This document shows, piece after piece, positions 12,462 to 48,622 of a stretch of DNA of 64,000 bases (position 1 is its first letter; each line of letters opens with the position of its first letter). The stretch is taken from positions 96,001-160,000 of IMG/VR virus record IMGVR_UViG_3300037466_003648. One strand, written 5' to 3'. The notes below the pieces were generated by a model. The model was not told the origin of the DNA, did no database searches, and was given only the letters and a program-made list of their open reading frames with translations. The translations under genes and the position numbers were made by a program. The stretch comes from a virus. Taxonomy: Duplodnaviria; Caudoviricetes.

Positions 12462-12719
12462 GTGGCAAGCCTTCAGACCCTGCTCACCGCCTGGATGACC
12501 AACGCCCAGGTGGTCACCCTCACCCTCCAGAACGGCCAGGCCGTGTCGGGCGTCGTGACGGACGACGGGGCTGCGGGTGACACGATCACCATCAAGCAGG
12601 GCAACGCGCGCACCAACGTCCCGAAGTCCGCGATCTGCACGCTGCCCGATCCCAGTGACATCACCCCGGCCGTCGGCACGCCGGGCCAGGGCACCAACAG
12701 CATTCGTCTCTTGCCCTAG
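12462..12719 (+). CDS. Hfq/Sm-like protein
   Basis: SLQ..L.A...V.L.L.NG...G.V...I.IK...V.K.AI.T aligns by eye with the Hfq Sm1/Sm2 motifs. Confidence 0.65.
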   Translation: MASLQTLLTAWMTNAQVVTLTLQNGQAVSGVVTDDGAAGDTITIKQGNARTNVPKSAICTLPDPSDITPAVGTPGQGTNSIRLLP

Positions 12720-33323: not shown

Positions 33324-33671
33324 ATGACCACAAAGCCAACCCCACCGCTGCGCCACATGGAGTGGGTGCGCCTCGTCTGGAAGCAGACCGATGGCATCGA
33401 GCTGGAGGTCGTCCGCAAGGTGCTGCGCGCCGCCGTGGATGTTCTGGTTCGCGAGCTGCTCGCTGGTCGGACGATCTCGATCCGCAGCTTGGGCAGCTTC
33501 TTCACCTACGATCGCCCCGAGCGTCGGTTCTACAACCCGGCCGCCGGTGCCTTCGTCGACAAGCCCGTCACCCGTTTGCCCCGGTTCAAGTACTCGAACT
33601 GGCTCAAGAACCAGGTGATGGGCCGTCGCGTGAAGACCAAGGCGAAGGGCACGGTGTCCCCGGATGCCTAA
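33324..33671 (+). CDS. HU/IHF-like DNA-binding protein (divergent second copy)
   Basis: ISIRSLGSFF...RPERRFYNPAAG...PRFKYS..LK. Confidence 0.8.
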   Translation: MTTKPTPPLRHMEWVRLVWKQTDGIELEVVRKVLRAAVDVLVRELLAGRTISIRSLGSFFTYDRPERRFYNPAAGAFVDKPVTRLPRFKYSNWLKNQVMGRRVKTKAKGTVSPDA

Positions 33672-33972
33672 GCCTCATCCCGTCCGCGACAAGTTCCTCA
33701 AGTACCTCAAGGGTCCACTGGCCCATGACACCCCTTGGGTAGATGTCTCGGGCGTGTATATGGCGCACGAGGTTCGCGCTGCAATCAAGAAGATCGCCGC
33801 GACCGATCCCATTCTCCACCAGATCATCGACCAGTACGTGCGTACCCGCAAGGCGCGCATGCAGATCGCGCAGAGCGTGTCCTACGACTCGTCCACCGTC
33901 AAGCGCAAGCTCGACGAGGCTGCCGATCTGGTGATGCACAACCTCAAGCTCGACGCTCCCGAGGTCAAGTAA
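33664..33972 (+). CDS. HTH regulator (sigma region 4/ArpU-RinA-like)
   Basis: C-terminal RMQIAQSVSYDSSTVKRKLDEA helix-turn-helix pattern. Confidence 0.55.
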   Translation: MPKPHPVRDKFLKYLKGPLAHDTPWVDVSGVYMAHEVRAAIKKIAATDPILHQIIDQYVRTRKARMQIAQSVSYDSSTVKRKLDEAADLVMHNLKLDAPEVK

Positions 33973-35295: not shown

Positions 35296-35964
35296 ATGAG
35301 TGCCACCAAGGACATCGACCAACTGATCGCCGACATCCGTCTCGCGACTGACTTGGTGGCCGAGAAGTCCTTGGTACGTCGCCTGCGTGGCGGTGCTGGA
35401 ACCCTGGACATCTTGAAAAGCGCGTTGGCACGCCTGGCCGAGATCCGTCAAACGTTCTCGATCCCCAACGACGTAGAGATTCTGGACTGGCTGAAGACAC
35501 AGCTTGCCGATCCACCGGCTATCACTGGTAAGGTGATCACTCCCGAAGTTGCGGAGCGCAGTGCTCAACGGTGGCTGCCTTCACCGGATGGTCCCGAACC
35601 TCCTGTTGTGGTCGAACCAGCCTCATTGGAACGGTTGCGACGTCGTCGTCCCAAACAGTGCGCTCGCTGCCCCAACAGCTTTATCCCGACGGGCTACCAA
35701 CAACCCTTCTGCCCTTCGTGTGTCGCTGCAATTGACATCGAGAACGCAGAGATCCGTCGCCAACAGATCGCGGCCGATCCAGAAGACGACAAACGGTCCG
35801 AGTCCGACACCTGGCCCAGCAGCAAGGTGAAGGGATTCCCTTGTGGCAGCTGCGTCAACGGTAAGAAGAACGACCTGTCCGAGAGCGGCTTCGAGTGCAC
35901 CACGAGCTGCGCCCGTGCGTGCGCCCCATGGGGTCCTGCGTGGAAGTACGAAGCGAAGGCTTGA
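35296..35964 (+). CDS. Cys-rich hypothetical protein
   Basis: CARC...CPSC and CGSC...C...C...C; start reassigned to 35296. Confidence 0.55.
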   Translation: MSATKDIDQLIADIRLATDLVAEKSLVRRLRGGAGTLDILKSALARLAEIRQTFSIPNDVEILDWLKTQLADPPAITGKVITPEVAERSAQRWLPSPDGPEPPVVVEPASLERLRRRRPKQCARCPNSFIPTGYQQPFCPSCVAAIDIENAEIRRQQIAADPEDDKRSESDTWPSSKVKGFPCGSCVNGKKNDLSESGFECTTSCARACAPWGPAWKYEAKA

Positions 35965-35989
35965 CAGGATTGCTTCTTGGTGCGATGAT
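35961..35989 (+). promoter_or_regulatory. promoter A (small RNA)
   Basis: TTGACA-17 nt-GATGAT with extended TG; the -10 box lies in the loop of TGGTGC/GCACCA. Confidence 0.65.
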
Positions 35990-35995
35990 AGCACC

Positions 35996-36078
35996 AGCCT
36001 GAGCTTCGGTTCCGTGTCCCAAACATTCCCGAAGCCTTCGCACGAAGCCCCTGCCCGCACAGGGGCTTCGTGCTGTTG
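35996..36078 (+). ncRNA. candidate ~80-nt small RNA
   Basis: No ORF; hairpin GCTTCGG/CCGAAGC with a 19-nt loop, then a 14-bp hairpin at 36040-36073. Ends are inferred. Confidence 0.5.
36040..36078 (+). terminator. 14-bp hairpin, possible terminator with a weak U-tract
   Basis: GCACGAAGCCCCTG/CAGGGGCTTCGTGC followed by TGTT. Confidence 0.5.
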
Positions 36079-36104
36079 ACACATGGATCGATCCATGGTA
36101 ACTT
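36076..36104 (+). promoter_or_regulatory. promoter B with a perfectly palindromic spacer
   Basis: TTGACA-17 nt-TAACTT with extended TG; the spacer contains the 16-bp palindrome CATGGATCGATCCATG. Confidence 0.7.
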
Positions 36105-36110
36105 ACATAC

Positions 36111-36397
36111 ATCAGGCTCTGTCGGAGTGCGGGACACGGAAGACAACCTGCTGGGAGCGAAGGGGCCGCTAGACGCCTGACGCCCTCGAAGGAAGAACCC
36201 GCGGAGTTCTTCACCGTTGTCCCTACCCTCCAATCGTACCCACGGGTCGAGCGGAGTTCCCGAAGGCTGGCCTTGACGGCCTGTACGACTGGAACGTGGG
36301 GGTAGGGGGACACGGTTACTTCGAGGGAGACTCAGCTAACCACTTCCGCCTGACGGGCGGGCGCGCGAGACGAGCCACACGGCTCGTCTTTTTGTTT
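36111..36397 (+). ncRNA. candidate ~285-nt highly structured RNA or attenuator leader
   Basis: No credible ORF; nested helices CCCTCGAAG/CTTCGAGGG, GAAGAAC/GTTCTTC, ACCGTTGTCCCTACCC/GGGTAGGGGGACACGGT, TCGTAC/GTACGA. Confidence 0.6.
36367..36397 (+). terminator. intrinsic terminator
   Basis: AGACGAGCC-ACAC-GGCTCGTCT followed by TTTTGTTT. Confidence 0.85.
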
Positions 36398-36425
36398 GGG
36401 ACCGCGGGTCCTGGGAGGAGATCCG

Positions 36426-36707
36426 TTGCTAAAACTGTACGCCCTGCTAATGATCGTGGGAGCGATCATCGCCTTGACCGGCTTGCTCTGGGCGATCCCG
36501 GAGTACGGTCAGCTGTACCGCACCTGGTTCGTGCTTTCCTCCACCAAGTCGACCGATGCGGTTTGGTTGACACGGCTCTCCGCCCAAGTGCAGATCCACC
36601 GCCTCAACTGCTTTGCCGAGGCGCTGGGTTCCTTGGCCGGACTCTTCATGATCGTGGGCGCCTTGTTAGGCATCTCGATCGAGCGGTTGCGTTCGGCGCC
36701 GCGTTAG
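36426..36707 (+). CDS. small membrane protein with two TM segments
   Basis: GGAGGAG RBS, TTG start at 36426; two hydrophobic stretches. Confidence 0.65.
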   Translation: MLKLYALLMIVGAIIALTGLLWAIPEYGQLYRTWFVLSSTKSTDAVWLTRLSAQVQIHRLNCFAEALGSLAGLFMIVGALLGISIERLRSAPR

Positions 36708-39700
36708 AACCATCCGGTGTGAACCAGGGCATCGTAGACGACGTTGGAAGCACGGTCCAGCACACCGGAACGTGTCGGGGTCGGCGGTGCCACGTCCGCG
36801 CGGGCAGCGTGTGGGCTTGGGGTGTGTCCCTTGATCTGGGCACGACCGCCCTTGACCGTCACCGTTGGGCGCGGCTTTGGCTGCGCCTTGTTGGCGGAGT
36901 CGTTGCTGCCCTGTCGTCCCTGGGGCGTGTTGGTCTGGAGGGTGACGACCATCTTCTTCTTGGCGTTCTTGGGCGCCAGGGACGGCGGCTTGGGCAGCGG
37001 AGACATCTGCTCCAGAATGTCTGGTGCCAGCACCAAAGGCGGGTGGGTGTTCTCACCCTCCCGATCCTTGCGCACGCGCTCGCGCATCTGCAAGTTCTGG
37101 ACGACCAGGTCCGGCGACGGGTGGTTACGACGCCAGAACTCGACCATGTCTCGGTCCGCCTGACGCATGGGGCTCTGGGGCACCAACAGGTCCGTCTGGA
37201 ACGTGCGTTCGTAGTGCCAGGAACCCGCCGCGCCCATCAGCACTTCGAGACCCTTCTTCTTGTTTGCCCATGCGGCCTTCGCGTAGTCGCTCAGGTGCGT
37301 TGTCACCTGGTTGTACTTGTCCTCGTCGCGTGCGTAAGGGCTCAAGCCGCCCGACGCCTGTGGGAACGCCTCGAAGACGGCACGCGCCAAGCCCGTCTGC
37401 CAGTTGCCGGGCATACGCTGGAACTTGTAGGTGTCCATCACACGGTAGTAAGGCACGCCTTGAATGACCGCCGGGCGGACCAGCGCACGACCGATGGCGA
37501 GCTTCTCCGCCTCGACGTCGATGCCGCGCTGGGACGTGCTGACGTAGTCGGCGTACTCGATCGAGTGCGTCTTGCGCTTCGCAGACTCTTCCAGTGCGAA
37601 GCGGTAGCGGTTCAGCTCGTGGCTGGTGAAGCTGCTCTCCGTCATGGCGCCCATGTACGAGTTGTCGTGGCGGCCGAGACCGGCCCAGAACTGGCCTTGG
37701 TAGCGCACGAAGGACGGCACCGATGCACGACCAATCCAGCGCAGCACCTCACCAGGTGCGCTGGCAACGGTACCCACCGTGTTGGTCAGCAACCCCTTGG
37801 TGGCCGTGTTGATCTTGTTGATGCCCCACACGGTCGCACCACCCGCAACAACCGCGGCACCCAACCCAGCCGCCACAGGTGCCCACGCGGGAGCGGTGAT
37901 CACACCGGCCGCGATCAGCCCGGCGGTGCCCGCAGCCGCGGCACCAAAGGCGAGACTGCCCGTGTACATACCGGTAGCACCCGACACCACGTTCAGACCC
38001 GCCTCGCGGCGCTGGGTCTGCGAGGTACCAAAGACGGTTTGCAGGGCGTCCCAACCCACCGCAAGCCCCATCGAGACACGACCGAATGCCTTCGAGGCCG
38101 CCCAGGTCGCTACACGACCCAAGACCCGCATGCCCCGCGAGAGCTTCTGACCCATCCAGTGTGCCGCGTGTCCGGTTGCCGTCGCCAACTGACCCAGTGC
38201 ATGCAGCGCGGTCGACGTCGTCACCATGCCCAGGTTCCAGGTCGCACGGCTCCGCTCTTCGGGGGACGACGTCGAATCGGACAGGGTGTTGATGTCCAAG
38301 GCCGCGAAGGCCGCGCTCAAAGCGAGCGTGCCACGCAATCCCGCAAACGTGTTCGGTGCGCGACCGGGACCGGGTACTGGACCCAGCGGGATGACAGCAG
38401 GCGCCACTGCCGTGTTGGGACGACCCCGGACGGCAGCTGTTGCCCCAGAGCCCAACAAGAGCTGGGGAGTCGAACCCAGAGGAATGACACCGGGCGTGAC
38501 CGCCGTGTTGAGACGACCCCGCGGGGCTGCTACCGTACCAGGACCCAACAAGAGTGGATCGGCGTTCACCGGACCCAAGGCGATCAGGTCGGGCGTGTGC
38601 GCCCCGTTAAGGCGTCCACGGATCTGGGAGGTGGCGGGAGTACCCATGCCCAACACCAAGGGGTTTGCCGGGGCTCCCAGTGCGATCACTTCGGGCGTCA
38701 CGGCACCGTTGAGACGACCCCGCGTGATGGGTTCGGCCGTTACGCCCGGACCCAACAACAAAGGCGCCGTTCGCGTCTGCAGAGAACGCAGCCCCATGCC
38801 ACGGCTGTAGGTGCGTGCCGCGCTGGCAGACTCTTCCAATGGAGCTGCTGCCACGCTCAAGCCGCCGCCCATGGTCAACCCACGGCCCCGCAGCAGCTCG
38901 TAGCCGATCGGCTGACGGGTGGCGGGAGCGGGTTGGTCGGGATGCAGCATGCTCAACCCCGGTCCGTAGGTGGCTCCGTTCCGAGCCAACAGACTGACCG
39001 TCCGGGTCGACAGGCTACCGGGAACACGGCTCTCGGCCATCGCCATTGCATCTTCAATCAGGTGCATCGTGGGCGTTGGACGTACCGCGAAACGTCCTGT
39101 GCTTGGGTCGCGGTAGCGACCTGGCTGCATGATGGGATCGGGACGGAAGCGTGGACGACGCGGCACCACCCCGTAGGTCATTTCGACCAGGTCGGGGTGC
39201 GTAGGGTAGCTCTCACCTTCAACCGGCATGAAGCCGAAGCGCTCACGGCCGGTGGTCCACCGATAGCCATGATCATTCACCAGACGATCGAGAATGGGCA
39301 GCATGCCGCCTCGCTGACCCGCAGGGGCGGGACGGAACCGGCCATCAGGACCACGGTGCGGCAGTACTCGACCGGGCAATTCGATGACATCGGGCGTCGC
39401 CACCGCGTTGGCGCGACCCACCCCGCCCGTTTCCATTTGCTGGCGGAGTACCGTCAACTGCTTGCGAACGGGATCGGTGTGCGGCGCATGCGTACCGTTG
39501 AACAACGCGCCCAACACGTCGTTCTTGGAATGTCCCCACGGGAGACTCCAGACACCCTTGTGTTGGAAGGCCACAATGTGGTCGGTGTTCATCACACCAC
39601 GACCCAACAGACGGGGGTGCAGGTCCCGACGCGGGGCAGCGTTGACCCGATTGTACTCGGGCGTGAACGAGGGATGATCCCCGCGATCGGGCGAACGGAA

Positions 39701-42700
39701 GCGGCCCTGCGAGAAACCAATACCTCCTTCGCGCATGCCGTCCATGACGATGCGCAGGTTGCTGTCACCCAACACCTGCGACACGGAGGTTGCACGCGGC
39801 ATGGCCAAACCATGGGCGCCCGTACGCTCCAAGGGTGCGTCGAAGCGCAGACGCGCATCTCCGTGGAATGGGGTTGCGTGTGCGGGCGCCGCGGGACGCA
39901 GCCCGGCCGCGCGTGCCTGCATATCTTCGCGCAGCGCCACCAATTCTGTGCGAACGGGGTCGACGCCGATCATTCCCTGTTGGGTAGAGACGTGGGCAGC
40001 CACCGTTTGTGGAGCCGCCTCGGGCTTGCGCCAGCCCATCACGGTTGCCAACTGGCGTCCGACCATCGACAAGCCCTTACGGGCCAGCTGCGCAGCGGCG
40101 ATCGTGCCAAAGATCAACGTCGTCCCTGCCGCGAGCGTCGCCAGGTACTGCAACGTGGTCTGGTCCGCATTGCCTTGCGTGGGGTTCTTGCTCATGTCCC
40201 GCACGCCGTACGCGATCGGACGACCTGCACTGTCGTGGGTCGTGCCCGTGAAGAAGCCCCGCTCGCCCAGCATCTGGCGGTACTTTGTCTGCACCTGCTC
40301 GGCGCGCTGACGATCGTACCCCATGCGCTCCTGCAGCAGGTCCGCAATGCGGTCACCCCCAAACTTGCTGTCGACGCTGCCCGCGATGGCTTCCTGCAAC
40401 GCCTTGAACTGGGGGCTGGGGGCCGCCGTGCCGAACGGATGGAAGATCGCGTCGATCTTGCGACCGGGAATGAAGCTGTTCATTTCCGCTGCCGTCTGGA
40501 CCGTCTTGTTGCTGTTGTCCGCGAACTTACCATCACCAATGTAGGTGAACCAGTGCCGTCCGCTGGAGGGGTTCATCGACATCGGATCGGAGCCGGGCAC
40601 GAAGGTCGCGTACAGCACGTCGCCGACGTGCACGCCACCCGTTGCCACCAGGGTGCTGAGCTGAGAGATCGGCACGCCGCGGTGCGCCAGGTCAGCGGGA
40701 ACATCCGTGCGGATGTCCTTGCCGCCCATGCGCATGATCAGGTGACGCGAGTACTGGAAGCATTCGTGCGCGGTCGCAACGAACGGGCCGTTGAGGTGTG
40801 CAATCATCTGCTCGCGAGAAGGTGCCGCACTGGGCGGCTGAATGCCCGCGGCTTCTAGGATCGCATCCGCCTTCTGCTGCGGCGTGGCGATGCGACCCAG
40901 GCTCGCGTTCAGCTTCTTGCTCCAGTAGCCGGGATCGTCTTGTGGGAGCCAACGGCTCTCGTTGTAGAGGTTGGCACGCACGCGACCGGCCATGGTCTGT
41001 GCGATCGCAGGAGACAGCCCCGCACGCTCGACCATGAACTTGTCCAAGCTTCCCTTGTAGCCACCCTTCATGTACTCCGGCAGCACGCGCTCCAAGGTGG
41101 ACTGCTGCTCCTTGGTTAGCAGTGGCTTGTCCTGCGCGACCGAACTCGGTGCCAGGGTGCGAATCTCGCGGATCGTCTGCTCGATGTGGCTGCCGTACGT
41201 GCGGTCGGTCGCGTAGATGCCCGTGATGTTGTAGCCGAAGGCAACGGCATTGTGGTCCTTCTTGTACTGGGCCAACGCCTGTGCGTAGACGGGGTTCTGT
41301 ACGAACAGCTTGCCGTGCGCCACCATCGCCTCTTCCAGCGAACCGTAGTTGGCGAAGTCCGCGTACGTGGTCACGCGCCGACCGCCGACGTCTTCCCAGG
41401 TCTTGAGGTGCAAGCTGCCCCGCGAGCCACGACCCTTGATGCCGAACAGGTTAAAGTCGCCGATCTTGGAAGCGCCCCAACCAGATTCCCACGCCGCCTG
41501 AGCCAGTGTCACTTCGGCCGGTACACCGTACAGCTTCTCAGTCATCTCGGCACCGGCGCGCAGGCTCGCGACGAAGCCCGCCGCTCCCTGACCCAGGTGC
41601 GTACGAGGCGCGTTCGCCAACAACACCGCGTTGCGCATGTCGGTGCCGCTCGCGGGCTTGATGACCTCGCCCGTGAAAGGCTTCTGTGGGCGACCGCGAC
41701 CAGTGGTCCCAATCGTCGCGTCACCACCCACGAACCCACCGTAGGCATGACCCGTGCGATGCCAAACACCACCCAGGATGCCGGTTTCGTAGATCAAGCC
41801 GCGGCGCAGCAGCTCGCCTTGGATGATGCTGTCGGGACCGGACGCCGACCGGTAGCGGAAGGCACGCGCTGCCTGGGCGTTACCCAACCCACCCGTGCCG
41901 CGACCCCGTTGCATGTAGAGCGACTTGAGGCTGTAGTCGTGGGCGGGCATGTCGTTGCCACCCTCCATCAGCCCCAGCGCGTCGCGACCGACCATGTCCA
42001 GCACGGTCTCGTGACCCATCGCACCCGACAGGCGCAGACGCTCCTGTTGGGCGAAGGCCAACGCCCCCGCGTCCATCATCCAGCCAGTGCCGCCACCCTC
42101 CGGCGTGGCCGAGTTACGGCCCCAGAAGATCGGGCTTGCCTGCGCCCACAAGGGCGACAGCGAGAAGCTCCACCCTTCCTGGTTCGCCTTCGCCGCCTCG
42201 AAGAGATTGCCCGGCGCGAGCATAGGACCGATAAAGTTGGCGGTGCCGATCAGGAAGCTCGCAAAGCCGGTCGGCTGCGTCTGTCCCTTGGGCGTCAGCG
42301 TACGTGCCAGTCCGTAGAGTGAACCGGTGACATTCGCCTGCAGCCCAATCGCGGCACGGCTGATGGCATTGCCTACCATCGACGAGCCGGGGATCGAGGC
42401 TGCCGCGCGACCGCTGGCACTCACCACGGACGTCATGGTCGTGCCCAGCGAGGTCGAAGCCCGCTCCGCCCAATTGCGCTCTTCGGGGCGCTTGCTCAGC
42501 GCGCTCTCCGAGAGGTGGTGCTGCGCCATCATGCCGCCGAAGCCCAACGCGGCGAGGCCACCACCCACCAACAACGCAGGCAATCCCACCAAACCGAAGT
42601 AGCCAACAGCCGCGGCGCCCGCCACGGCGCTGCCACCCAAGAACAGTTCGGCCGTCAGCGAGGCACCACCCGCCTCCGCGAACTTCTCCTTCTGCTCCGT

Positions 42701-45700
42701 CGTCAGGAAGTCCGACGACTGGGCGGCCATGCCCGTCGCCACCTGGGCGATCGAGAGTCCTTGCATGACACGACCAAAGCCGTCAAAGGCACCCAACCCC
42801 AGACCCACAGCACCGGCAGCACCCCGACGCAGGTAGCCGGGTGCCGTGGACTTGATCTCGGTCAGGCGAGCTTCCACCGCCGCGCGATGCGCCGCGTAGC
42901 CGCCGGTCGGATCGTTGCGGAAGAGGTAGTCCGCGGGCTTGGTCGTGGCGCCGGGGATGTGCATCCCTGGTGTGTGGGGTGTGAAGGCGGGCTCCAAACC
43001 GGCTCCCGCAACCACGTTCTTGGCGAGTCCCGCGCCTGTCATCCCTGCCTCGCGGAACACCGCGTTCATGTCGATCGGTGCGGTGCCCGCGATCGTACCG
43101 AACTCGTTGAGCATGCGACGCATGATCTGCTCGTACTCGCTCATGAGATCGTCGGTGATCGCGGCCGTCGACGTCGTGGGCAGGCGCAGACCCAGGTCGC
43201 CGATGGCCTTCTGGGTCTCGAACCACGCCGCACTGGGCATGTGACCTGCAGGCATCGAGGTCGGGTGCAGCTTGTCCAACACGTCGAGCACACGTCCCAG
43301 CGACGCACCCATAGCACCCGCCGTGCGGATCTGGGGCAGACCCTCGTAACGCGCGAGCAGCGTGTTGAAGCTTCGCTCAACGAGCTTCGCCTTGTCGCGT
43401 CCGGCCATCACCGTACCGCGAGGATCGGTGCTGTCGGCAAAAGGACGGCCTTGGTAGTCGCCGTAAGCGCGCAACCCATCGCCACCCATCACGGGCAGGT
43501 CGACGCGGTACAGCCCCGCCTTGTTACCGGACAGTGTCCAATGGGGATGGGCGCCCGGACCATGCGGCGCCTCTGGCGAGAGCAGCACGCCGTGCGTCTT
43601 CGCCTGGTGCGTGGGCATGTAGCGCTCGACACGCTCCTGCCAGGTCTCGCGCTCGCCACGCACCCCACGCCAGGCAGCGAACATGGGACGCGCCATGAAG
43701 TGTGCTGCAAACGGTACCGCCGCCAGCGCACCCACCGCCGCGGCGCCCACCAGTGTCGTGGGGTTGGCGAGCCAGTTGACCTGGTACTCGCTCAGCGTGC
43801 GTGCGCCGGTCGGGATGCCCAGCAGGGTGCCTTCCTCCGTGCGAGGTGCTCCCATCAATGCGGCAATGTCGTCTTCGGCCTCCACGTCGCTCGTGCCGGT
43901 GCGATCGGCCTGACGCTGCCCCGCGTACGTCTTGCTGAAGTCCGCCTGGTCCAGCGCTCCGGCCTTGCGCCAGATACCGCCCATCAGGTTGCCCCAGCGG
44001 AACTGCTGGGTCACGCCACCGTCCATACCTCGCACTTGTGCGGTGTAGGTAACTTGGTGCAAGAACGCGGGCTTCGCGCCACCCGGCAAGAACTCGCCGC
44101 GGTAGCGACGGTACTCCGACGGCCACATGCCCAGTGCCGCACGCGACTCGTTGTAGCGCACGGCCATGGCCAGCTTGAGTGCGGGGTCCGCTTCGTACAT
44201 GGGCGAACCCGGCATGAACATGCGACCCATGAATGCGGCGCGCTTGCGGCCGACCCATTCGGTCTCCAACACCTTGCGGGAGCCCCCGATCGCGGCAGCC
44301 AATTGCGAGTCGATCTCACCCGACGACTTGGTGCGCGTGACGTGCCAACCCGTGTTGTAACCGATCGACATGAGTCCGCCGAAGAACATCTTCGTGATCT
44401 TCCAGGTCGCCATCTCCATCGAGTCGGGACCCGTCTGCTTGAACGCAGCGTGCAGACCCAAGTCGCTGTAGGCTTCCGCCGTCATGAAGAACTCTTCGGG
44501 CTTGCCCATGCCGACGGTCTGCTTGGCCGCGCGGTTGAGCATGTCCCAGATACCCAGGTAACCCGGACGGAAGCGGCCCTTGTCACCCGCCGCGCCCGAC
44601 TCGGCCGAGAGCGAGTCCGTGGGACCCGCCGCGAAGCGACGCGCTTCCTGTGGATCGATCGGGGCGGCCACGTTCTTGAGGTCGACGGTCTCGCCGAAGA
44701 GTCGGCTCGCCGAGTTGCCGATCAACGGGATCGCCTTGAGCATCTGGCGGTAGCCGCCCATCTGCTCGCGGTAGCCCTGAGGGTCACCTGTGCTCATCGC
44801 CCGTGCAAAGGCGTAGCCGGTGTAGCCCATGAACAGACCCACGGCGCCACGGGCACCCACACGGTAGCCCCGCGTCAGCTGACCGGTGCGGCGCGTCAAC
44901 TCGTTGACCCAGCCCACGTTGCCGCGGGTGATGCCCTGTGCAGCCACCGTGAAGCCCGCGTTCAGCGCGCGAGGTACCAGGGTCAGGGGCAGCTCGGCCA
45001 GCTCGTTCGCCAGTCCGAAGCCCACCGCCCCCATGCCATAGGCGAACTTGGCGATGCCCCGAGACTTGACCATGCGCTCGGCCATCCCGCGGTTCATGTT
45101 GCCCAGCATACTGAACCCCGAGCCGCGCATCTCGCCCGTACGGATGTAGGCGGCAACGTTGCGTCCCGCATCGAGCAGGCTGCCCCCGTTGCGTGCGAAC
45201 AGCCCCGCCCCGGCGTAGGCACCCAGAGGCGCAAAGCCGTAGGTCGTGGCGAGACCGACACCAATCATTCCAGCACCCAAGCGGACCGAAGCTTCCCAGT
45301 TGGTGTTGGGCTCGTAGCCGAAGCTCATGCCGAAGCGCACGGCATTCGCCGTCCAGCCGTCCTCGCCGCCGGTCGCGTCGATGAGGGCACGCAGGGCGCC
45401 GTCCATCGGGATCTCTTCTTCGTTCTTGTGGTCTCGGTACCAATCCCGGAAGCCCTTGCGACCGCGCAGATCGGAGTAGTAGTACGGGAGCTTGACACTG
45501 CCGTGGATGCCCGACGGCATGCCCAGCATCGCCGTCAGCATGAAGGTGGTCTTGCCACCCTCGACGACGGCGCCGCCCCAGACCGAGCCCAGGGGCAGGT
45601 AACCAATACGCATACCGTACGCCAGCGACAGCGAGACCTGTGCCTTGTCGGCCTGACCCGCCCATTGCTGCGCCATGTCGAGCGTCGCCCGGATGGCACC

Positions 45701-48622
45701 CAGTTCTGCCTGGTCACGAGGACCGGCGCCAGCTGCCACCAGCTTTTCCATGCGCCCCAACGACATGCGCTCCGTCTCGTTGACCATCATCGTGGTCGCC
45801 ATGGTCTTGGTGACGACCTTGTACATGAGGTCTTCACGACTGGCCATGAACGACATGGTCATGTCGCGCTGCATCGCGGTCAGGCGATCGACAAAGTACC
45901 CGGCGATGCCAGACGCCGACCAGTCTCGCAGACCCGCACGCTCCACCTCGCGGTAGGGGTTGTAGCCCCGCAGGTCGCTCGCCACCGAGACCATCTTGGT
46001 CGCGCGCTGGGCAGCCCCCAATGGGTTGAAGGGGTTCATCGACATCCCGGCAACGAACTGGGCACCCCAACTCAAGCCGGTGCTCAGCCCCACCGCGAGC
46101 GCGGGCATGATGTCCAGGATACCCGCCAACCCGCTGCGCGGTGCCAGGTCGGCCCAGCCAAAGTTGGTGACCGTCCCCGCCGCCCCGTGCAGCGTGTTCT
46201 CGCGGTCGATCTGGGTCTCCAGGGTCTCGCGCTTGGCAGACGCCAGCATGCCATAAGCGTGGGTCGCCACCGCGCCGACAAACAGTGCCTGGACGCCACG
46301 ACGGGCCAAGGCACGTCCGGGAGTCAGGCCGGTCTCGCCGTAGAGGTGTCCATAGGAACGCGCGAATTGACCTTGTGCGTGGGCATCACGCCACAGCTCT
46401 TGGGCGCGCGACCAGTCGCCCCGCAGCGCCGCACCCCACCCCGCGCGGCGTGTCGCGCGCATCCCCGCGATGTGAGGGTTTGGTGCCAGGTTGAGCACGT
46501 CGGCGACGAGCCCGCCACCCGGCAGCTCGCGAATGAAGCGATTGGCAACTTGGTTGACCGCCCGAAAACGCTCGTGCAGCGTCATGCGCTTGGCGTCGTG
46601 CTCGATCTCGTAGATCGTGTGAACATGCCCGCTAGGCAGCGTCACCGTCTTGACGTTGATCTTGCCGCCGCGCTGACGACGCAGGTCGAGCGCGAGTTGG
46701 CGGTCGGTGACCTGGACCTTCTTGAGCGACGACTTGTGGTCGTACACGCCCATGACATCGTCGATGAACTTGCGGCCAACGTCCCCCGCTACCGCCCCGT
46801 AGGCTTCGCGCTGGACGCCCCACAAACCCTTGGAGATGCCCGCGTGCACGTCCATCGCGTACTCGCCCGCCTGACCAGCCGCCACCGTCGCGTCACGCAC
46901 GAACGCCGACACCGGGCCATGCACGGGCGCGTTCAGCACCCGATCCCCGATGGTACGACTGATCCGCCCCATCCCGGAAGCCGCCCGCGCACCGATCTCG
47001 GCCATGAACATGGTCGACCGGATCAAGCCGATGTTCATTCCCAGGTTGAAGAGCGTGTCGTCTACCCAACGAGCGCCATCGGCATAGGTGCCCTCCGCCT
47101 TCGCGTCGATCGGACGGTAGTCGGCAGAGCCGTAAACCCGCAGCTGCTCGTCTTGATGGTTCCGACGATCGATCTGGGCGCCCAGGTTGACCAGCAGCGA
47201 GCCCAACGGCCCGCGGTTACCGCGTGCCTCGGTCAGCTCGCTCGCCGTGGCCGCCCAGCCACTGCCGAAGCGCTGGTTGACGTAGTCCGTGATCTGACCG
47301 CGCCACAGCTCGCCGAAGGTGGGCAGCATTGCCTCGCGGTCGCTTCGCGTGATGACGTCCGGCATGGACGACGGCAACTGCCCCTCGTGTCCACCTGCGT
47401 ACATCTCGGTGTAGAGGTGGCGATAGAAGCGCCCGGCCGAACGCATCGGGTTGACGAACGATCCCTGCTCGTGCGTGGCCGCTGCCCACGCGTACGCCTT
47501 GCGCGTGTCGGCATCGAAGATGACCTGGGGGTCCACGACGTACTGCCACGCCTTGCGTTGGCCGCCCAGCGAGATGCCGTGCAGGGGCATCATCGACGGC
47601 ATGAAGGTGCCCAACTTCGTGAACGGCATGCGCAACTGCTCGCCCGCACCGAAGTCGAAGTTGGACTGAACCTGACGAGCGATGTCGGCTGCCACACGGG
47701 CATCGCGGGCGTGCAGCATCACTTCGGTGGAGCGCTCGCCGTTGTAGCCTTCCACCGCGGTCTTGGAGAAGCGCATGGAGCCCACCATGTAGGTGTCACC
47801 CATGGCGATGACGTTGGCGTGCCACGGGCGGTTGCCCCAACCCACATGCAGGTTGGTCAGCGTGCGTCCTGCCGCCGTTAGCTTCTGGAACGCACGACCC
47901 TCGTTATTGATGTCTTGCTGGTTCAGACCACCCAAGCCCACGTAGACCTGATCGCCGCGGCGCGCCTTCTGGATGATCGAGTCCAGGACGTGCGGATCGG
48001 AGAGCGTGGCCGACGCGATGTACAACGCTGCGTGGTTACCCCGATCCCCGATGATGCGGCTCAGCACGTCCAGCGCGGTGCCCGTGTCCTTGGGACTGGC
48101 GACCAGCAGATTCTGGGTCGAGACCGGCGCACGACCAGCAGCGATCGCGCCCAGCACCGTGTCCATCTGGCGGACGAGGTTGGCATCGCGGGTTGCCACG
48201 AAGTAGTTGAACTGGGTCTTGTCCTGGCCGGAGAAGCGGCTGTACTCCGGCAGCGTCGCCATGCCCAAACCCGTCTTGGTCATGTTGGCGGTGCCAACGA
48301 ACATCACACGATCGCCGGTCGGGCTCGTGAACTCGCCGACCTTGGCGTGCAGACGCGAGCCGAAGGTCTTGCGATCGGCTTCGATCAGGTTCGTGTGACC
48401 CTTCAGGGTCTCGTAGGCTTGGGGGTTGGACCACTTCGCGGTGGTGCGCTCCGAACCCACGATGCGACCGCCGCCGGACAGAACCGAACGCGTGAGCCGG
48501 TTGTCCTCCACCTCGTAAGTGGTCATGACCGAACGCGACGACATACCGAGCAGGCTCAGTCGAGCCTGCTCGTCATCCCGGCCAAACCAGGTAGGCGAGG
48601 TGCGATCGTCGAAGGTGGGCAT
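36704..48622 (-). CDS. giant virion protein (tape-measure or ejection-like) with PLD-like, GH73 and NlpC/P60-like domains
   Basis: 3972 aa; HAK...GTANMT and HAN...GSMRFS; AQAAWESGWG...NLFGIKG...YATD; ECFQY...GDVLY...HWFTYIGDG; several hydrophobic Gly/Ala segments. Confidence 0.8.
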   Translation of the reverse strand: MPTFDDRTSPTWFGRDDEQARLSLLGMSSRSVMTTYEVEDNRLTRSVLSGGGRIVGSERTTAKWSNPQAYETLKGHTNLIEADRKTFGSRLHAKVGEFTSPTGDRVMFVGTANMTKTGLGMATLPEYSRFSGQDKTQFNYFVATRDANLVRQMDTVLGAIAAGRAPVSTQNLLVASPKDTGTALDVLSRIIGDRGNHAALYIASATLSDPHVLDSIIQKARRGDQVYVGLGGLNQQDINNEGRAFQKLTAAGRTLTNLHVGWGNRPWHANVIAMGDTYMVGSMRFSKTAVEGYNGERSTEVMLHARDARVAADIARQVQSNFDFGAGEQLRMPFTKLGTFMPSMMPLHGISLGGQRKAWQYVVDPQVIFDADTRKAYAWAAATHEQGSFVNPMRSAGRFYRHLYTEMYAGGHEGQLPSSMPDVITRSDREAMLPTFGELWRGQITDYVNQRFGSGWAATASELTEARGNRGPLGSLLVNLGAQIDRRNHQDEQLRVYGSADYRPIDAKAEGTYADGARWVDDTLFNLGMNIGLIRSTMFMAEIGARAASGMGRISRTIGDRVLNAPVHGPVSAFVRDATVAAGQAGEYAMDVHAGISKGLWGVQREAYGAVAGDVGRKFIDDVMGVYDHKSSLKKVQVTDRQLALDLRRQRGGKINVKTVTLPSGHVHTIYEIEHDAKRMTLHERFRAVNQVANRFIRELPGGGLVADVLNLAPNPHIAGMRATRRAGWGAALRGDWSRAQELWRDAHAQGQFARSYGHLYGETGLTPGRALARRGVQALFVGAVATHAYGMLASAKRETLETQIDRENTLHGAAGTVTNFGWADLAPRSGLAGILDIMPALAVGLSTGLSWGAQFVAGMSMNPFNPLGAAQRATKMVSVASDLRGYNPYREVERAGLRDWSASGIAGYFVDRLTAMQRDMTMSFMASREDLMYKVVTKTMATTMMVNETERMSLGRMEKLVAAGAGPRDQAELGAIRATLDMAQQWAGQADKAQVSLSLAYGMRIGYLPLGSVWGGAVVEGGKTTFMLTAMLGMPSGIHGSVKLPYYYSDLRGRKGFRDWYRDHKNEEEIPMDGALRALIDATGGEDGWTANAVRFGMSFGYEPNTNWEASVRLGAGMIGVGLATTYGFAPLGAYAGAGLFARNGGSLLDAGRNVAAYIRTGEMRGSGFSMLGNMNRGMAERMVKSRGIAKFAYGMGAVGFGLANELAELPLTLVPRALNAGFTVAAQGITRGNVGWVNELTRRTGQLTRGYRVGARGAVGLFMGYTGYAFARAMSTGDPQGYREQMGGYRQMLKAIPLIGNSASRLFGETVDLKNVAAPIDPQEARRFAAGPTDSLSAESGAAGDKGRFRPGYLGIWDMLNRAAKQTVGMGKPEEFFMTAEAYSDLGLHAAFKQTGPDSMEMATWKITKMFFGGLMSIGYNTGWHVTRTKSSGEIDSQLAAAIGGSRKVLETEWVGRKRAAFMGRMFMPGSPMYEADPALKLAMAVRYNESRAALGMWPSEYRRYRGEFLPGGAKPAFLHQVTYTAQVRGMDGGVTQQFRWGNLMGGIWRKAGALDQADFSKTYAGQRQADRTGTSDVEAEDDIAALMGAPRTEEGTLLGIPTGARTLSEYQVNWLANPTTLVGAAAVGALAAVPFAAHFMARPMFAAWRGVRGERETWQERVERYMPTHQAKTHGVLLSPEAPHGPGAHPHWTLSGNKAGLYRVDLPVMGGDGLRAYGDYQGRPFADSTDPRGTVMAGRDKAKLVERSFNTLLARYEGLPQIRTAGAMGASLGRVLDVLDKLHPTSMPAGHMPSAAWFETQKAIGDLGLRLPTTSTAAITDDLMSEYEQIMRRMLNEFGTIAGTAPIDMNAVFREAGMTGAGLAKNVVAGAGLEPAFTPHTPGMHIPGATTKPADYLFRNDPTGGYAAHRAAVEARLTEIKSTAPGYLRRGAAGAVGLGLGAFDGFGRVMQGLSIAQVATGMAAQSSDFLTTEQKEKFAEAGGASLTAELFLGGSAVAGAAAVGYFGLVGLPALLVGGGLAALGFGGMMAQHHLSESALSKRPEERNWAERASTSLGTTMTSVVSASGRAAASIPGSSMVGNAISRAAIGLQANVTGSLYGLARTLTPKGQTQPTGFASFLIGTANFIGPMLAPGNLFEAAKANQEGWSFSLSPLWAQASPIFWGRNSATPEGGGTGWMMDAGALAFAQQERLRLSGAMGHETVLDMVGRDALGLMEGGNDMPAHDYSLKSLYMQRGRGTGGLGNAQAARAFRYRSASGPDSIIQGELLRRGLIYETGILGGVWHRTGHAYGGFVGGDATIGTTGRGRPQKPFTGEVIKPASGTDMRNAVLLANAPRTHLGQGAAGFVASLRAGAEMTEKLYGVPAEVTLAQAAWESGWGASKIGDFNLFGIKGRGSRGSLHLKTWEDVGGRRVTTYADFANYGSLEEAMVAHGKLFVQNPVYAQALAQYKKDHNAVAFGYNITGIYATDRTYGSHIEQTIREIRTLAPSSVAQDKPLLTKEQQSTLERVLPEYMKGGYKGSLDKFMVERAGLSPAIAQTMAGRVRANLYNESRWLPQDDPGYWSKKLNASLGRIATPQQKADAILEAAGIQPPSAAPSREQMIAHLNGPFVATAHECFQYSRHLIMRMGGKDIRTDVPADLAHRGVPISQLSTLVATGGVHVGDVLYATFVPGSDPMSMNPSSGRHWFTYIGDGKFADNSNKTVQTAAEMNSFIPGRKIDAIFHPFGTAAPSPQFKALQEAIAGSVDSKFGGDRIADLLQERMGYDRQRAEQVQTKYRQMLGERGFFTGTTHDSAGRPIAYGVRDMSKNPTQGNADQTTLQYLATLAAGTTLIFGTIAAAQLARKGLSMVGRQLATVMGWRKPEAAPQTVAAHVSTQQGMIGVDPVRTELVALREDMQARAAGLRPAAPAHATPFHGDARLRFDAPLERTGAHGLAMPRATSVSQVLGDSNLRIVMDGMREGGIGFSQGRFRSPDRGDHPSFTPEYNRVNAAPRRDLHPRLLGRGVMNTDHIVAFQHKGVWSLPWGHSKNDVLGALFNGTHAPHTDPVRKQLTVLRQQMETGGVGRANAVATPDVIELPGRVLPHRGPDGRFRPAPAGQRGGMLPILDRLVNDHGYRWTTGRERFGFMPVEGESYPTHPDLVEMTYGVVPRRPRFRPDPIMQPGRYRDPSTGRFAVRPTPTMHLIEDAMAMAESRVPGSLSTRTVSLLARNGATYGPGLSMLHPDQPAPATRQPIGYELLRGRGLTMGGGLSVAAAPLEESASAARTYSRGMGLRSLQTRTAPLLLGPGVTAEPITRGRLNGAVTPEVIALGAPANPLVLGMGTPATSQIRGRLNGAHTPDLIALGPVNADPLLLGPGTVAAPRGRLNTAVTPGVIPLGSTPQLLLGSGATAAVRGRPNTAVAPAVIPLGPVPGPGRAPNTFAGLRGTLALSAAFAALDINTLSDSTSSPEERSRATWNLGMVTTSTALHALGQLATATGHAAHWMGQKLSRGMRVLGRVATWAASKAFGRVSMGLAVGWDALQTVFGTSQTQRREAGLNVVSGATGMYTGSLAFGAAAAGTAGLIAAGVITAPAWAPVAAGLGAAVVAGGATVWGINKINTATKGLLTNTVGTVASAPGEVLRWIGRASVPSFVRYQGQFWAGLGRHDNSYMGAMTESSFTSHELNRYRFALEESAKRKTHSIEYADYVSTSQRGIDVEAEKLAIGRALVRPAVIQGVPYYRVMDTYKFQRMPGNWQTGLARAVFEAFPQASGGLSPYARDEDKYNQVTTHLSDYAKAAWANKKKGLEVLMGAAGSWHYERTFQTDLLVPQSPMRQADRDMVEFWRRNHPSPDLVVQNLQMRERVRKDREGENTHPPLVLAPDILEQMSPLPKPPSLAPKNAKKKMVVTLQTNTPQGRQGSNDSANKAQPKPRPTVTVKGGRAQIKGHTPSPHAARADVAPPTPTRSGVLDRASNVVYDALVHTGWF
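38360..38775 (-). repeat. four degenerate ~31-35-aa tandem repeats in the giant protein
   Basis: Repeated unit PLLLGPG...RGRLN.A.TP..I.LG; DNA repeat GTTGAGACGACCCCGCG. Confidence 0.8.

Follow-up and report, generated by a model that had tools for sequence, protein, structure and literature searches.

To our knowledge, regulatory RNAs of phages are known mostly from a few temperate coliphages, and soil jumbo phages are almost unexplored. In the kissing antisense RNAs of plasmids (ColE1 RNA I/RNA II, R1 CopA/CopT and pT181), recognition starts between complementary hairpin loops. The c4 RNA of phages P1 and P7 reportedly recognises its target through short complementary segments in loops, and these segments are said to differ between P1 and P7 while the target has changed to match, so that there are two specificities; both points are attributed to Citron and Schuster in 1990. 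Here we describe a locus in a 64-kb stretch of phage DNA (the window, bases 96001–160000 of the 205,180-bp IMG/VR virus record IMGVR_UViG_3300037466_003648), at which two predicted RNAs, RNA A and RNA B, lie in tandem on the + strand and carry complementary loops. Maintenance of this complementarity by compensating mutations points to a new phage RNA-RNA partnership. An initial annotation, made from the letters of the window, had proposed a kissing pair and had remarked that such RNAs are usually encoded on opposite strands. Antisense and target on one strand are not unprecedented, since the c4 RNA of P1/P7 shares an operon with its target, icd/ant (PMC8198154).

RNA A and the first part of RNA B comprise the following features (lengths in nucleotides, nt, or base pairs, bp).

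35961–35989, + strand: promoter A (TTGACA, 17 nt, GATGAT), from a promoter scan
35996–36075, + strand: RNA A, a predicted small RNA (sRNA) of ~80 nt with predicted ends, consisting of a 5′ segment, the a-box hairpin and T1
36003–36035, + strand: A hairpin, stem GCTTCGG/CCGAAGC with a 19-nt loop
36010–36020, + strand: a-box, UUCCGUGUCCC
36040–36073, + strand: T1 hairpin, 14 bp, G+C-rich, between the promoters, with a weak U tail (UGUUG)
36076–36104, + strand: promoter B, TTGACA (36076–36081), 17 nt, TAACTT (36099–36104)
36111–36395, + strand: RNA B, predicted to be a structured non-coding RNA, ~285 nt long with the terminator included; homologs found by covariance model R1
36113–36150, + strand: B 5′ hairpin, CAGG.CUC.UGUC / GACA.A.CCUG with an 18-nt loop
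36131–36141, + strand: b-box, the partner of the a-box

As read directly in the sequence, TTCCGTGTCCC (36010–36020) is the exact reverse complement of GGGACACGGAA (36131–36141), and each box lies inside an 18–19-nt hairpin loop, which bears out the claimed 11-nt loop complementarity. Both hairpins drawn in the initial annotation were found as described: in the first, GCTTCGG (36003–36009) pairs with CCGAAGC (36029–36035) and the 19-nt loop opens with the a-box; in the second, CAGG..TGTC (36113–36123) pairs with GACA.CCTG (36142–36150) and the 18-nt loop closes with the b-box. The two promoters that it had assigned are also present, A being found by the promoter scan and B being visible in the sequence. 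Complementarity of a and b runs on imperfectly to 36028. The loop-versus-loop duplex had an energy of -29.3 kcal/mol, a value reached by none of 1000 shuffled loops, and b-box sequence GGGACACGG occurred in three copies in the 64-kb window, all inside one 300-bp stretch of the locus. When RNAduplex was applied to the full-length RNAs A and B, shuffles scored equally well. A long-range perfect run of at least 11 bp arose in 46 of 2000 shuffles of the locus (2.3%); judged from this locus alone, the 11-bp match is no more than suggestive, and the decisive support comes from comparison with its homologs.

Two of the three homologous loci were found with R1, a covariance model of the long RNA built from the window copy (W) and a paralog (P). 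P was detected by a search of the phage's own 205-kb genome, at ~83.2–83.7 kb, directly before a large tRNA array, and its layout matches W from promoter A through the conserved 3′ block of RNA B. A syntenic ortholog (S) was matched by R1 with an E-value of 8.7e-30 in a Logan contig whose terminase is 74% identical; it is flanked by genes for a Cys-rich protein and for a membrane protein of 90 amino acids (aa), beside a giant 4108-aa gene. A fourth, non-syntenic copy (G) was a full-length R1 match (E 3e-5) in IMG/VR record G001, with a terminase 54% identical. All four loci present, in this order, promoter A, a looped a-box, a hairpin, promoter B and a b-box in the loop of a hairpin, and RNAs A and B are both on the + strand, 35 nt apart, in each of them.

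The four loci were aligned from the first a-box base to the last b-box base. All 44 cells (11 a:b columns by 4 loci) held standard pairs. Five of the 11 columns varied, three by double-sided compensatory changes (U-A to C-G, C-G to U-A and G-C to C-G) and two by single-step changes to U·G. Sliding the partner by 1–3 columns lowered pairing to 25–61%, and the observed pairing value was reached by 162 of 5000 column shuffles. All three arm-to-arm differences were U·G on the + strand (A·C on the other strand), which argues for pairing at the RNA level and not for a DNA inverted repeat. The a:b duplex was contiguous over 11 bp (W, S), 13 bp (P) or 14 bp (G), with imperfect extension to ~17–23 bp; cognate loop-by-loop duplexes ranged from -24.9 to -45.5 kcal/mol, and 0 of 1000 shuffles reached each of them. 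W and P have different sequences in the middle of the duplex, and each RNA preferred its own partner by 5–23 kcal/mol.

The hairpins that present the boxes have diverged in sequence. The inner stem of the B hairpin covaries (UGUC/GACA in W and S, UGGU/ACCA in P, CUGCGUU/AACGCAG in G), and the homologs of the A hairpin carry a similar C-rich loop on stems of differing sequence. The a-box lies in a 19–25-nt loop in W, S and P and the b-box in an 18–19-nt hairpin loop in all four loci, with the distance from a to b varying between 113 and 165 nt. Covariation in related phages had been named as a check in the initial annotation; when it was run, the homologous loops proved complementary, with compensatory changes, and the idea that the loops pair as RNA was upheld by compensatory and G·U changes across four loci of three phages. 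The complementarity proposed for the two 5′ ends stood in part: AGCCTGA (35996–36002) is the exact reverse complement of TCAGGCT (36112–36118) in the window, but this 7-nt match is poorly conserved: S keeps six of the seven pairs, two being G·U, P shows 5 bp in a shifted register, and in G001 no such match was seen.

The transcription signals around the boxes are conserved as well. The TTGACA -35 hexamer of promoter A, which in the window contains the stop codon of an upstream Cys-rich open reading frame (ORF), stands at the same position in all four loci. RNA A folds with a z-score of -7.3 in W and of -6.1 to -8.1 in the three homologs. The hairpin between the promoters is present at the equivalent place in all four, with unrelated sequences; its tail is eleven Ts in G, U-rich in S and P, and weak only in W. 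Promoter B reads TTGACA-17-TAACTT in S, TTGACG-18-TAGGGT in P and TTGACA-17-TATTGT in G, so that the -35 hexamer, a 17–18-nt spacer and a TAnnnT -10 are kept in the four loci despite diverged flanks. Thus the positions of both promoters and of the intervening hairpin, as initially proposed, are conserved in four loci. The motif TTGAC[AG]-N16-18-TAnnnT occurred 12 times in the phage genome against 1.65 expected (~7-fold), all 12 on the + strand, and these copies include both P promoters and promoter B of W (three of the four A/B promoters of the genome). The motif appears to be a promoter class used by the host polymerase in a single gene block. In W, the spacer of promoter B is filled by a perfect 16-nt palindrome, CATGGATCGATCCATG (36082–36097); the palindrome is partly kept in S (CCTGGAGCGATCCGTG) and absent in P and G, and could be a candidate operator.

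The remainder of RNA B contains the following features.

36183–36191, + strand: 5′ strand of helix H2, CCCUCGAAG, pairing with 36319–36327
36192–36212, + strand: hairpin H3, GAAGAAC / GUUCUUC, just 3′ of the H2 5′ strand
36214–36228, + strand: c-box, CCGUUGUCCCUACCC, a-box-like, pairing with the d-box
36300–36315, + strand: d-box, GGGUAGGGGGACACGG, containing the GGGACACGG of the b-box
36319–36327, + strand: 3′ strand of H2, CUUCGAGGG
36357–36368, + strand: conserved 3′ block, GCGGGCGCGCGA, with GCGCGA invariant in the four loci
36367–36395, + strand: T2, intrinsic terminator of RNA B with a 10-bp stem and a T-run after it, from a terminator scan

RNA B thus carries internal copies of both recognition boxes. 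A c:d helix of 11–15 bp can be drawn in all four loci, and at the d-box W and P share an identical 19-nt block. In W, S and G, all four boxes have changed in concert; in G they read CUCUGUGUCCCC (a), GGGGACGCAGAG (b), CUCUGCGUCCCC (c) and GGGGACGCAG (d). Because the boxes have co-changed, c being like a and d carrying the b sequence, b should be able to pair with c too, and this alternative b:c pairing is perfect over 9 bp in S and 12 bp in G. The c:d duplex is 7–13 kcal/mol more stable than b:c. Of the other elements, H2 (CCCUCGAAG/CUUCGAGGG) has 9 bp in W, and its homologous helix 13 bp in S and 8 bp in P; a hairpin of differing sequence stands at the place of H3 in 4/4 loci; and T2 has a counterpart in S, which has a terminator of its own, and none in P and G. 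RNA B alone gave fold z-scores of -5.0 in S and G.

A coding role for RNA B was rejected: overlapping ORFs on both strands had no Pfam match, no ORF was conserved, and the indels between W and S within RNA B are not multiples of three. No Rfam family was found over the A/B region, whether in the whole window at the gathering score, in the region at E ≤ 10, or in the paralog and G001 at E ≤ 5. We regard RNA A and RNA B as a new RNA family.

Some further observations were made on RNA B. A palindromic GCGCGC followed by A (36361–36368) closes its conserved part, and this self-complementary 3′ element could let RNA B dimerise. A short motif occurs twice (36174–36181 and 36347–36354 in W), ~35–45 nt past the b-box and the d-box; it reads CGCCUGAC in W, CGCCUAA in S, CGCCAGUU in P and CCAAUAGCUGGA in G, its copies being identical within a locus and different between loci. 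In P, the 5′ part of RNA A (AACUGGCG) complements both copies; no common partner was found in the other loci. By global alignment, the tails past the b-box and the d-box were not significantly alike, with only short locus-specific blocks in common.

These features can be arranged in a model. Two non-coding RNA genes would follow one another on a single strand, each under a host-type promoter of its own (TTGACA / TAnnnT). RNA A, ~80–117 nt, would stop at the conserved terminator hairpin, with a large loop displaying a C-rich sequence (..GUCCCC..). RNA B, ~260–290 nt, would begin ~35 nt past the RNA A terminator, its first hairpin displaying the complementary G-rich sequence in its loop. The two loops would pair over 11–14 contiguous bp, extendable to ~17–23 bp, and because they can pair, RNA A would be a dedicated antisense partner docking on RNA B. 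Since RNA B carries its own box copies (a-like c, b-like d and the c:d helix), docking would most likely control the folding of B. With b occupied by A, c would be left for d and not captured by b, which is transcribed before d; altered activity or stability of RNA B would be the outcome. We infer from the sequences that RNA A and RNA B are both transcribed, that they come together in trans and that B is affected. A tandem same-strand pair in which A is made separately and docks on B has, in our estimate, an even chance of being correct. The box copies suggest a folding choice inside RNA B, biased by A occupying b. A full two-piece RNA switch, in which the sRNA acts as an RNA 'ligand' that mimics strand c of RNA B and, by occupying the b-loop while B is being transcribed, chooses between b:c and c:d, with two orthogonal pairs in this one phage, is put forward tentatively and is rather unlikely.

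Several observations weigh against this model. Only metagenomes, from soil and rhizosphere, have yielded DNA of the phage, and the transcripts are predicted from sequence. Covariation statistics are thin, with four loci, three phages and a column-shuffle value of 3%. In W (z -0.6) and P (z -1.5), shuffled sequences fold as well as RNA B by itself. The a-box of G lies in a multiloop of the terminator hairpin and not in a hairpin of its own, and T1 of W has no U-run, so read-through is possible at the window copy. In P the a and b boxes have diverged from the c and d boxes, and the folding-switch model therefore fits the copies unequally.

Because the promoters and the position of the hairpin between them are conserved, with T11 after the hairpin in G, we lean, on an evenly balanced judgement, to two tandem transcripts over one read-through RNA. 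The latter, possible but doubtful, would be a single ~400-nt RNA made from promoter A past the first hairpin, in which a:b forms a long-range intramolecular helix (a pseudoknot with the local stems); promoter B, if active, would only add a shorter isoform. It agrees with the missing U-run of T1 in W, with the folding of the 405-nt stretch (z -6.5), in which the a:b helix encloses T1 and promoter B, and with z-scores of -4.7 to -6.7 for the A-to-B stretch in all four loci. However, these scores come mostly from the terminator hairpin, RNA A alone giving z -6 to -8, and promoter B has kept canonical -35 and -10 hexamers at similar spacing in four otherwise diverged loci, where the tail of the inter-gene hairpin is T11 in G and U-rich in S and P. 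The repeats also flank promoter B, and with the palindrome in its spacer as a possible operator they could be inverted half-sites for a dimeric or looping regulator, the RNA complementarity being incidental. Such a DNA-level element is very unlikely: the arm differences, all U·G on one strand, would be true mismatches in DNA half-sites, the boxes sit in loops of covarying hairpins, the palindrome is degraded or absent in the other loci, and the spacing of the boxes is variable. Chance complementarity in G+C-rich intergenic DNA would suit the 2.3% of shuffles of the W locus that gave an 11-bp match, but complementarity at homologous positions in four loci, with compensatory changes, effectively refutes it and leaves it a negligible probability.

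The initial annotation had called RNA B a leader RNA, and a gene does follow it in the window.

36426–36707, + strand: gene of a small protein (93 aa) whose ends are hydrophobic, past T2, present only in W and S and with no Pfam family

An sRNA-controlled leader or attenuator, with RNA B as the 5′ leader of this gene and RNA A setting read-through at T2, possibly together with a Q-like antiterminator, is a distinctly improbable explanation. It would account for the arrangement in W and S, where the terminator of RNA B is followed directly by a ribosome-binding site (RBS) and a gene for a 90–93-aa hydrophobic protein. The a-loop of W (GUCCCAAACA) also complements UGUUUGGGAC (36393–36402) over 10 bp, just past T2, as well as did only 13 of 1000 shuffles; this complementarity is not conserved in S, where 634 of 1000 shuffles were equal. 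The ORF at 33664–33972 (+, 102 aa, ~2 kb upstream) and two orthologs matched Phage_antitermQ at E 0.004–0.015, below the Pfam cut-off, which keeps an antitermination reading alive at low probability; yet relative L055 keeps the Q-like ORF and has no RNA locus at the syntenic site. In P, moreover, a further promoter comes immediately after RNA B, with the tRNA array next, and in G no membrane-protein gene was seen past RNA B in a flank read by eye and not annotated. The label of leader RNA is thus not supported, and since the downstream context varies among the loci, RNA B looks like a module of its own. A second protein candidate was not borne out either: the ORF at 12462–12719 (+), called Hfq-like, had no Pfam match at E ≤ 0.1.

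The 10-mer GTCCCAAACA occurs at 35648–35657 and 36016–36025 (+) and, as its complement, at 36393–36402; these three copies lie within 750 bp, and the 205-kb genome has no others. The a-loop of RNA A holds one of them, and the complement lies just past T2, before the RBS of the small membrane-protein gene.

Other searches for the locus returned little. Among 36 IMG/VR relatives found by terminase, G001 was the sole R1 match. Relatives whose terminases are 55–79% identical are present in Logan/SRA assemblies. The more distant relatives L055–L058 had no intergenic gap at the syntenic site, and R1 gave no match in L055, the one of these four covered by the R1 run. A scan of viral contigs with GGGGACACGG..CTCAGCTAAC returned only a fragment of the same phage, and one of metagenome contigs returned none. 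A three-box DNA pattern gave 11 viral and at least 120 genome matches, all of which, except the known loci, failed the covariance model. As protein anchors, the upstream 247-aa protein had no relatives, a word search with the giant protein found the same phage only, and an alignment of the PD-(D/E)XK exonuclease found nothing in metagenome, viral or genome contigs. Contigs from four DNA runs were identical, with zero variants at the locus. An alignment of the 3′ half (MAFFT, RNAalifold) was too poor as a basis for a model.

The source genome has direct terminal repeats and a G+C content of ~63% in the window, and ARAGORN found in it 35 tRNA genes and no transfer-messenger RNA (tmRNA); neither tRNA nor tmRNA was found by ARAGORN in the window or in L051, a sequence carrying a homologous locus. 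An array of 32 tRNAs lies outside the window at 83958–87783 of the genome and starts ~280 bp past the paralogous RNA pair. The window encodes a ribonucleotide reductase, a UvrD-like helicase, a PD-(D/E)XK exonuclease and a terminase. BLASTN against GenBank phages gave no match, and the closest GenBank phage terminase, that of Microcystis phage Ma-LMM01, is only 31% identical, which indicates a little-known jumbo phage. The terminase gene adjoins an ORF of 3972 aa (36704–48622, - strand), whose relatives of 3038–4778 aa occupy the same place in related phages and contain SLT and Peptidase_M23 domains; its product is probably a giant virion-associated cell-wall hydrolase. An HU-like gene at 33324–33671 (Bac_DNA_binding, E 5e-10) neighbours the Phage_antitermQ-like ORF at 33664–33972.

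The preferred reading, a separately made RNA A docking on RNA B, would be of interest in several ways. A complementarity of 11–23 nt that is no by-product of overlapping transcription and is kept by compensation offers a clean case of selection on an RNA-RNA contact. Two further features are unusual: the target is itself structured and non-coding and contains its own copies of the two recognition boxes, and one genome holds two pairs with different recognition sequences. If pairing redirects the folding of RNA B, the locus would be a natural, orthogonal RNA-controlled RNA switch and would offer a way into the function of a new family of phage RNAs, which has one of its copies at the head of a 32-tRNA array. 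Should the two-piece switch be true, it would provide programmable, orthogonal control of RNA folding by RNA on a new class of phage structured RNA. The whole two-RNA system takes up ~450 bp, and in vitro work is possible without a known host.

Among described systems, type I toxin-antitoxin pairs were rejected as a model, RNA B having no conserved ORF and a hydrophobic protein gene following only in W and S. The riboswitch or attenuator leader class was set aside on the downstream gene context, which differs in P and appears to differ in G, and a tmRNA or tRNA-like RNA on the lack of any ARAGORN or Rfam match. Like the ROOL and GOLLD RNAs, RNA B is a structured phage RNA, and its P copy lies directly before a 32-tRNA array, but it is much smaller, has a partner sRNA and has no match to their Rfam models. 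RNA A resembles the sRNAs with C-rich loops (6C RNA of Actinobacteria, RsaE and the UCCC type of RNAIII) in being short and terminator-ended, with a looped C-run and a G-rich partner; those RNAs pair with Shine-Dalgarno regions of mRNAs, whereas here the partner is a dedicated neighbour RNA, and there was no Rfam match to 6C.

The plasmid antisense RNAs are closer. As in ColE1, the larger partner is structured and non-coding, and its fold would be redirected by the small RNA, as in the proposed choice between b:c and c:d. In ColE1, R1 and pT181, however, the pairs are encoded on opposite strands and their complementarity is automatic and complete. Here both promoters and terminators face one way, which departs from the opposite-strand arrangement, the G·U pattern fits the + strand only, and complementarity between the tandem genes extends over only ~11–23 nt; with tandem same-strand genes and so short a match, it must be maintained by selection. 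Unlike in the plasmid systems, no replication function is evident, and the locus stands at a convergent gene junction.

By analogy, the closest counterpart in logic is the c4 antisense RNA of P1/P7. Its two specificities in P1 and P7 parallel the two diverged pairs of W and P, although the Rfam C4 model did not match the RNA A/B region. The target of c4 is the ribosome-binding region of the icd/ant mRNA, and here it would be the first hairpin of a structured non-coding RNA. c4 is cut out of a transcript common with its target, whereas RNA A has its own predicted promoter and terminator. In both cases, a small phage antisense RNA lies upstream of its target on one strand, as in the immI operon c4-icd-ant (PMC8198154). 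Judged by these likenesses, the locus is a variant of loop-loop antisense control, a kind of regulation that is already known.

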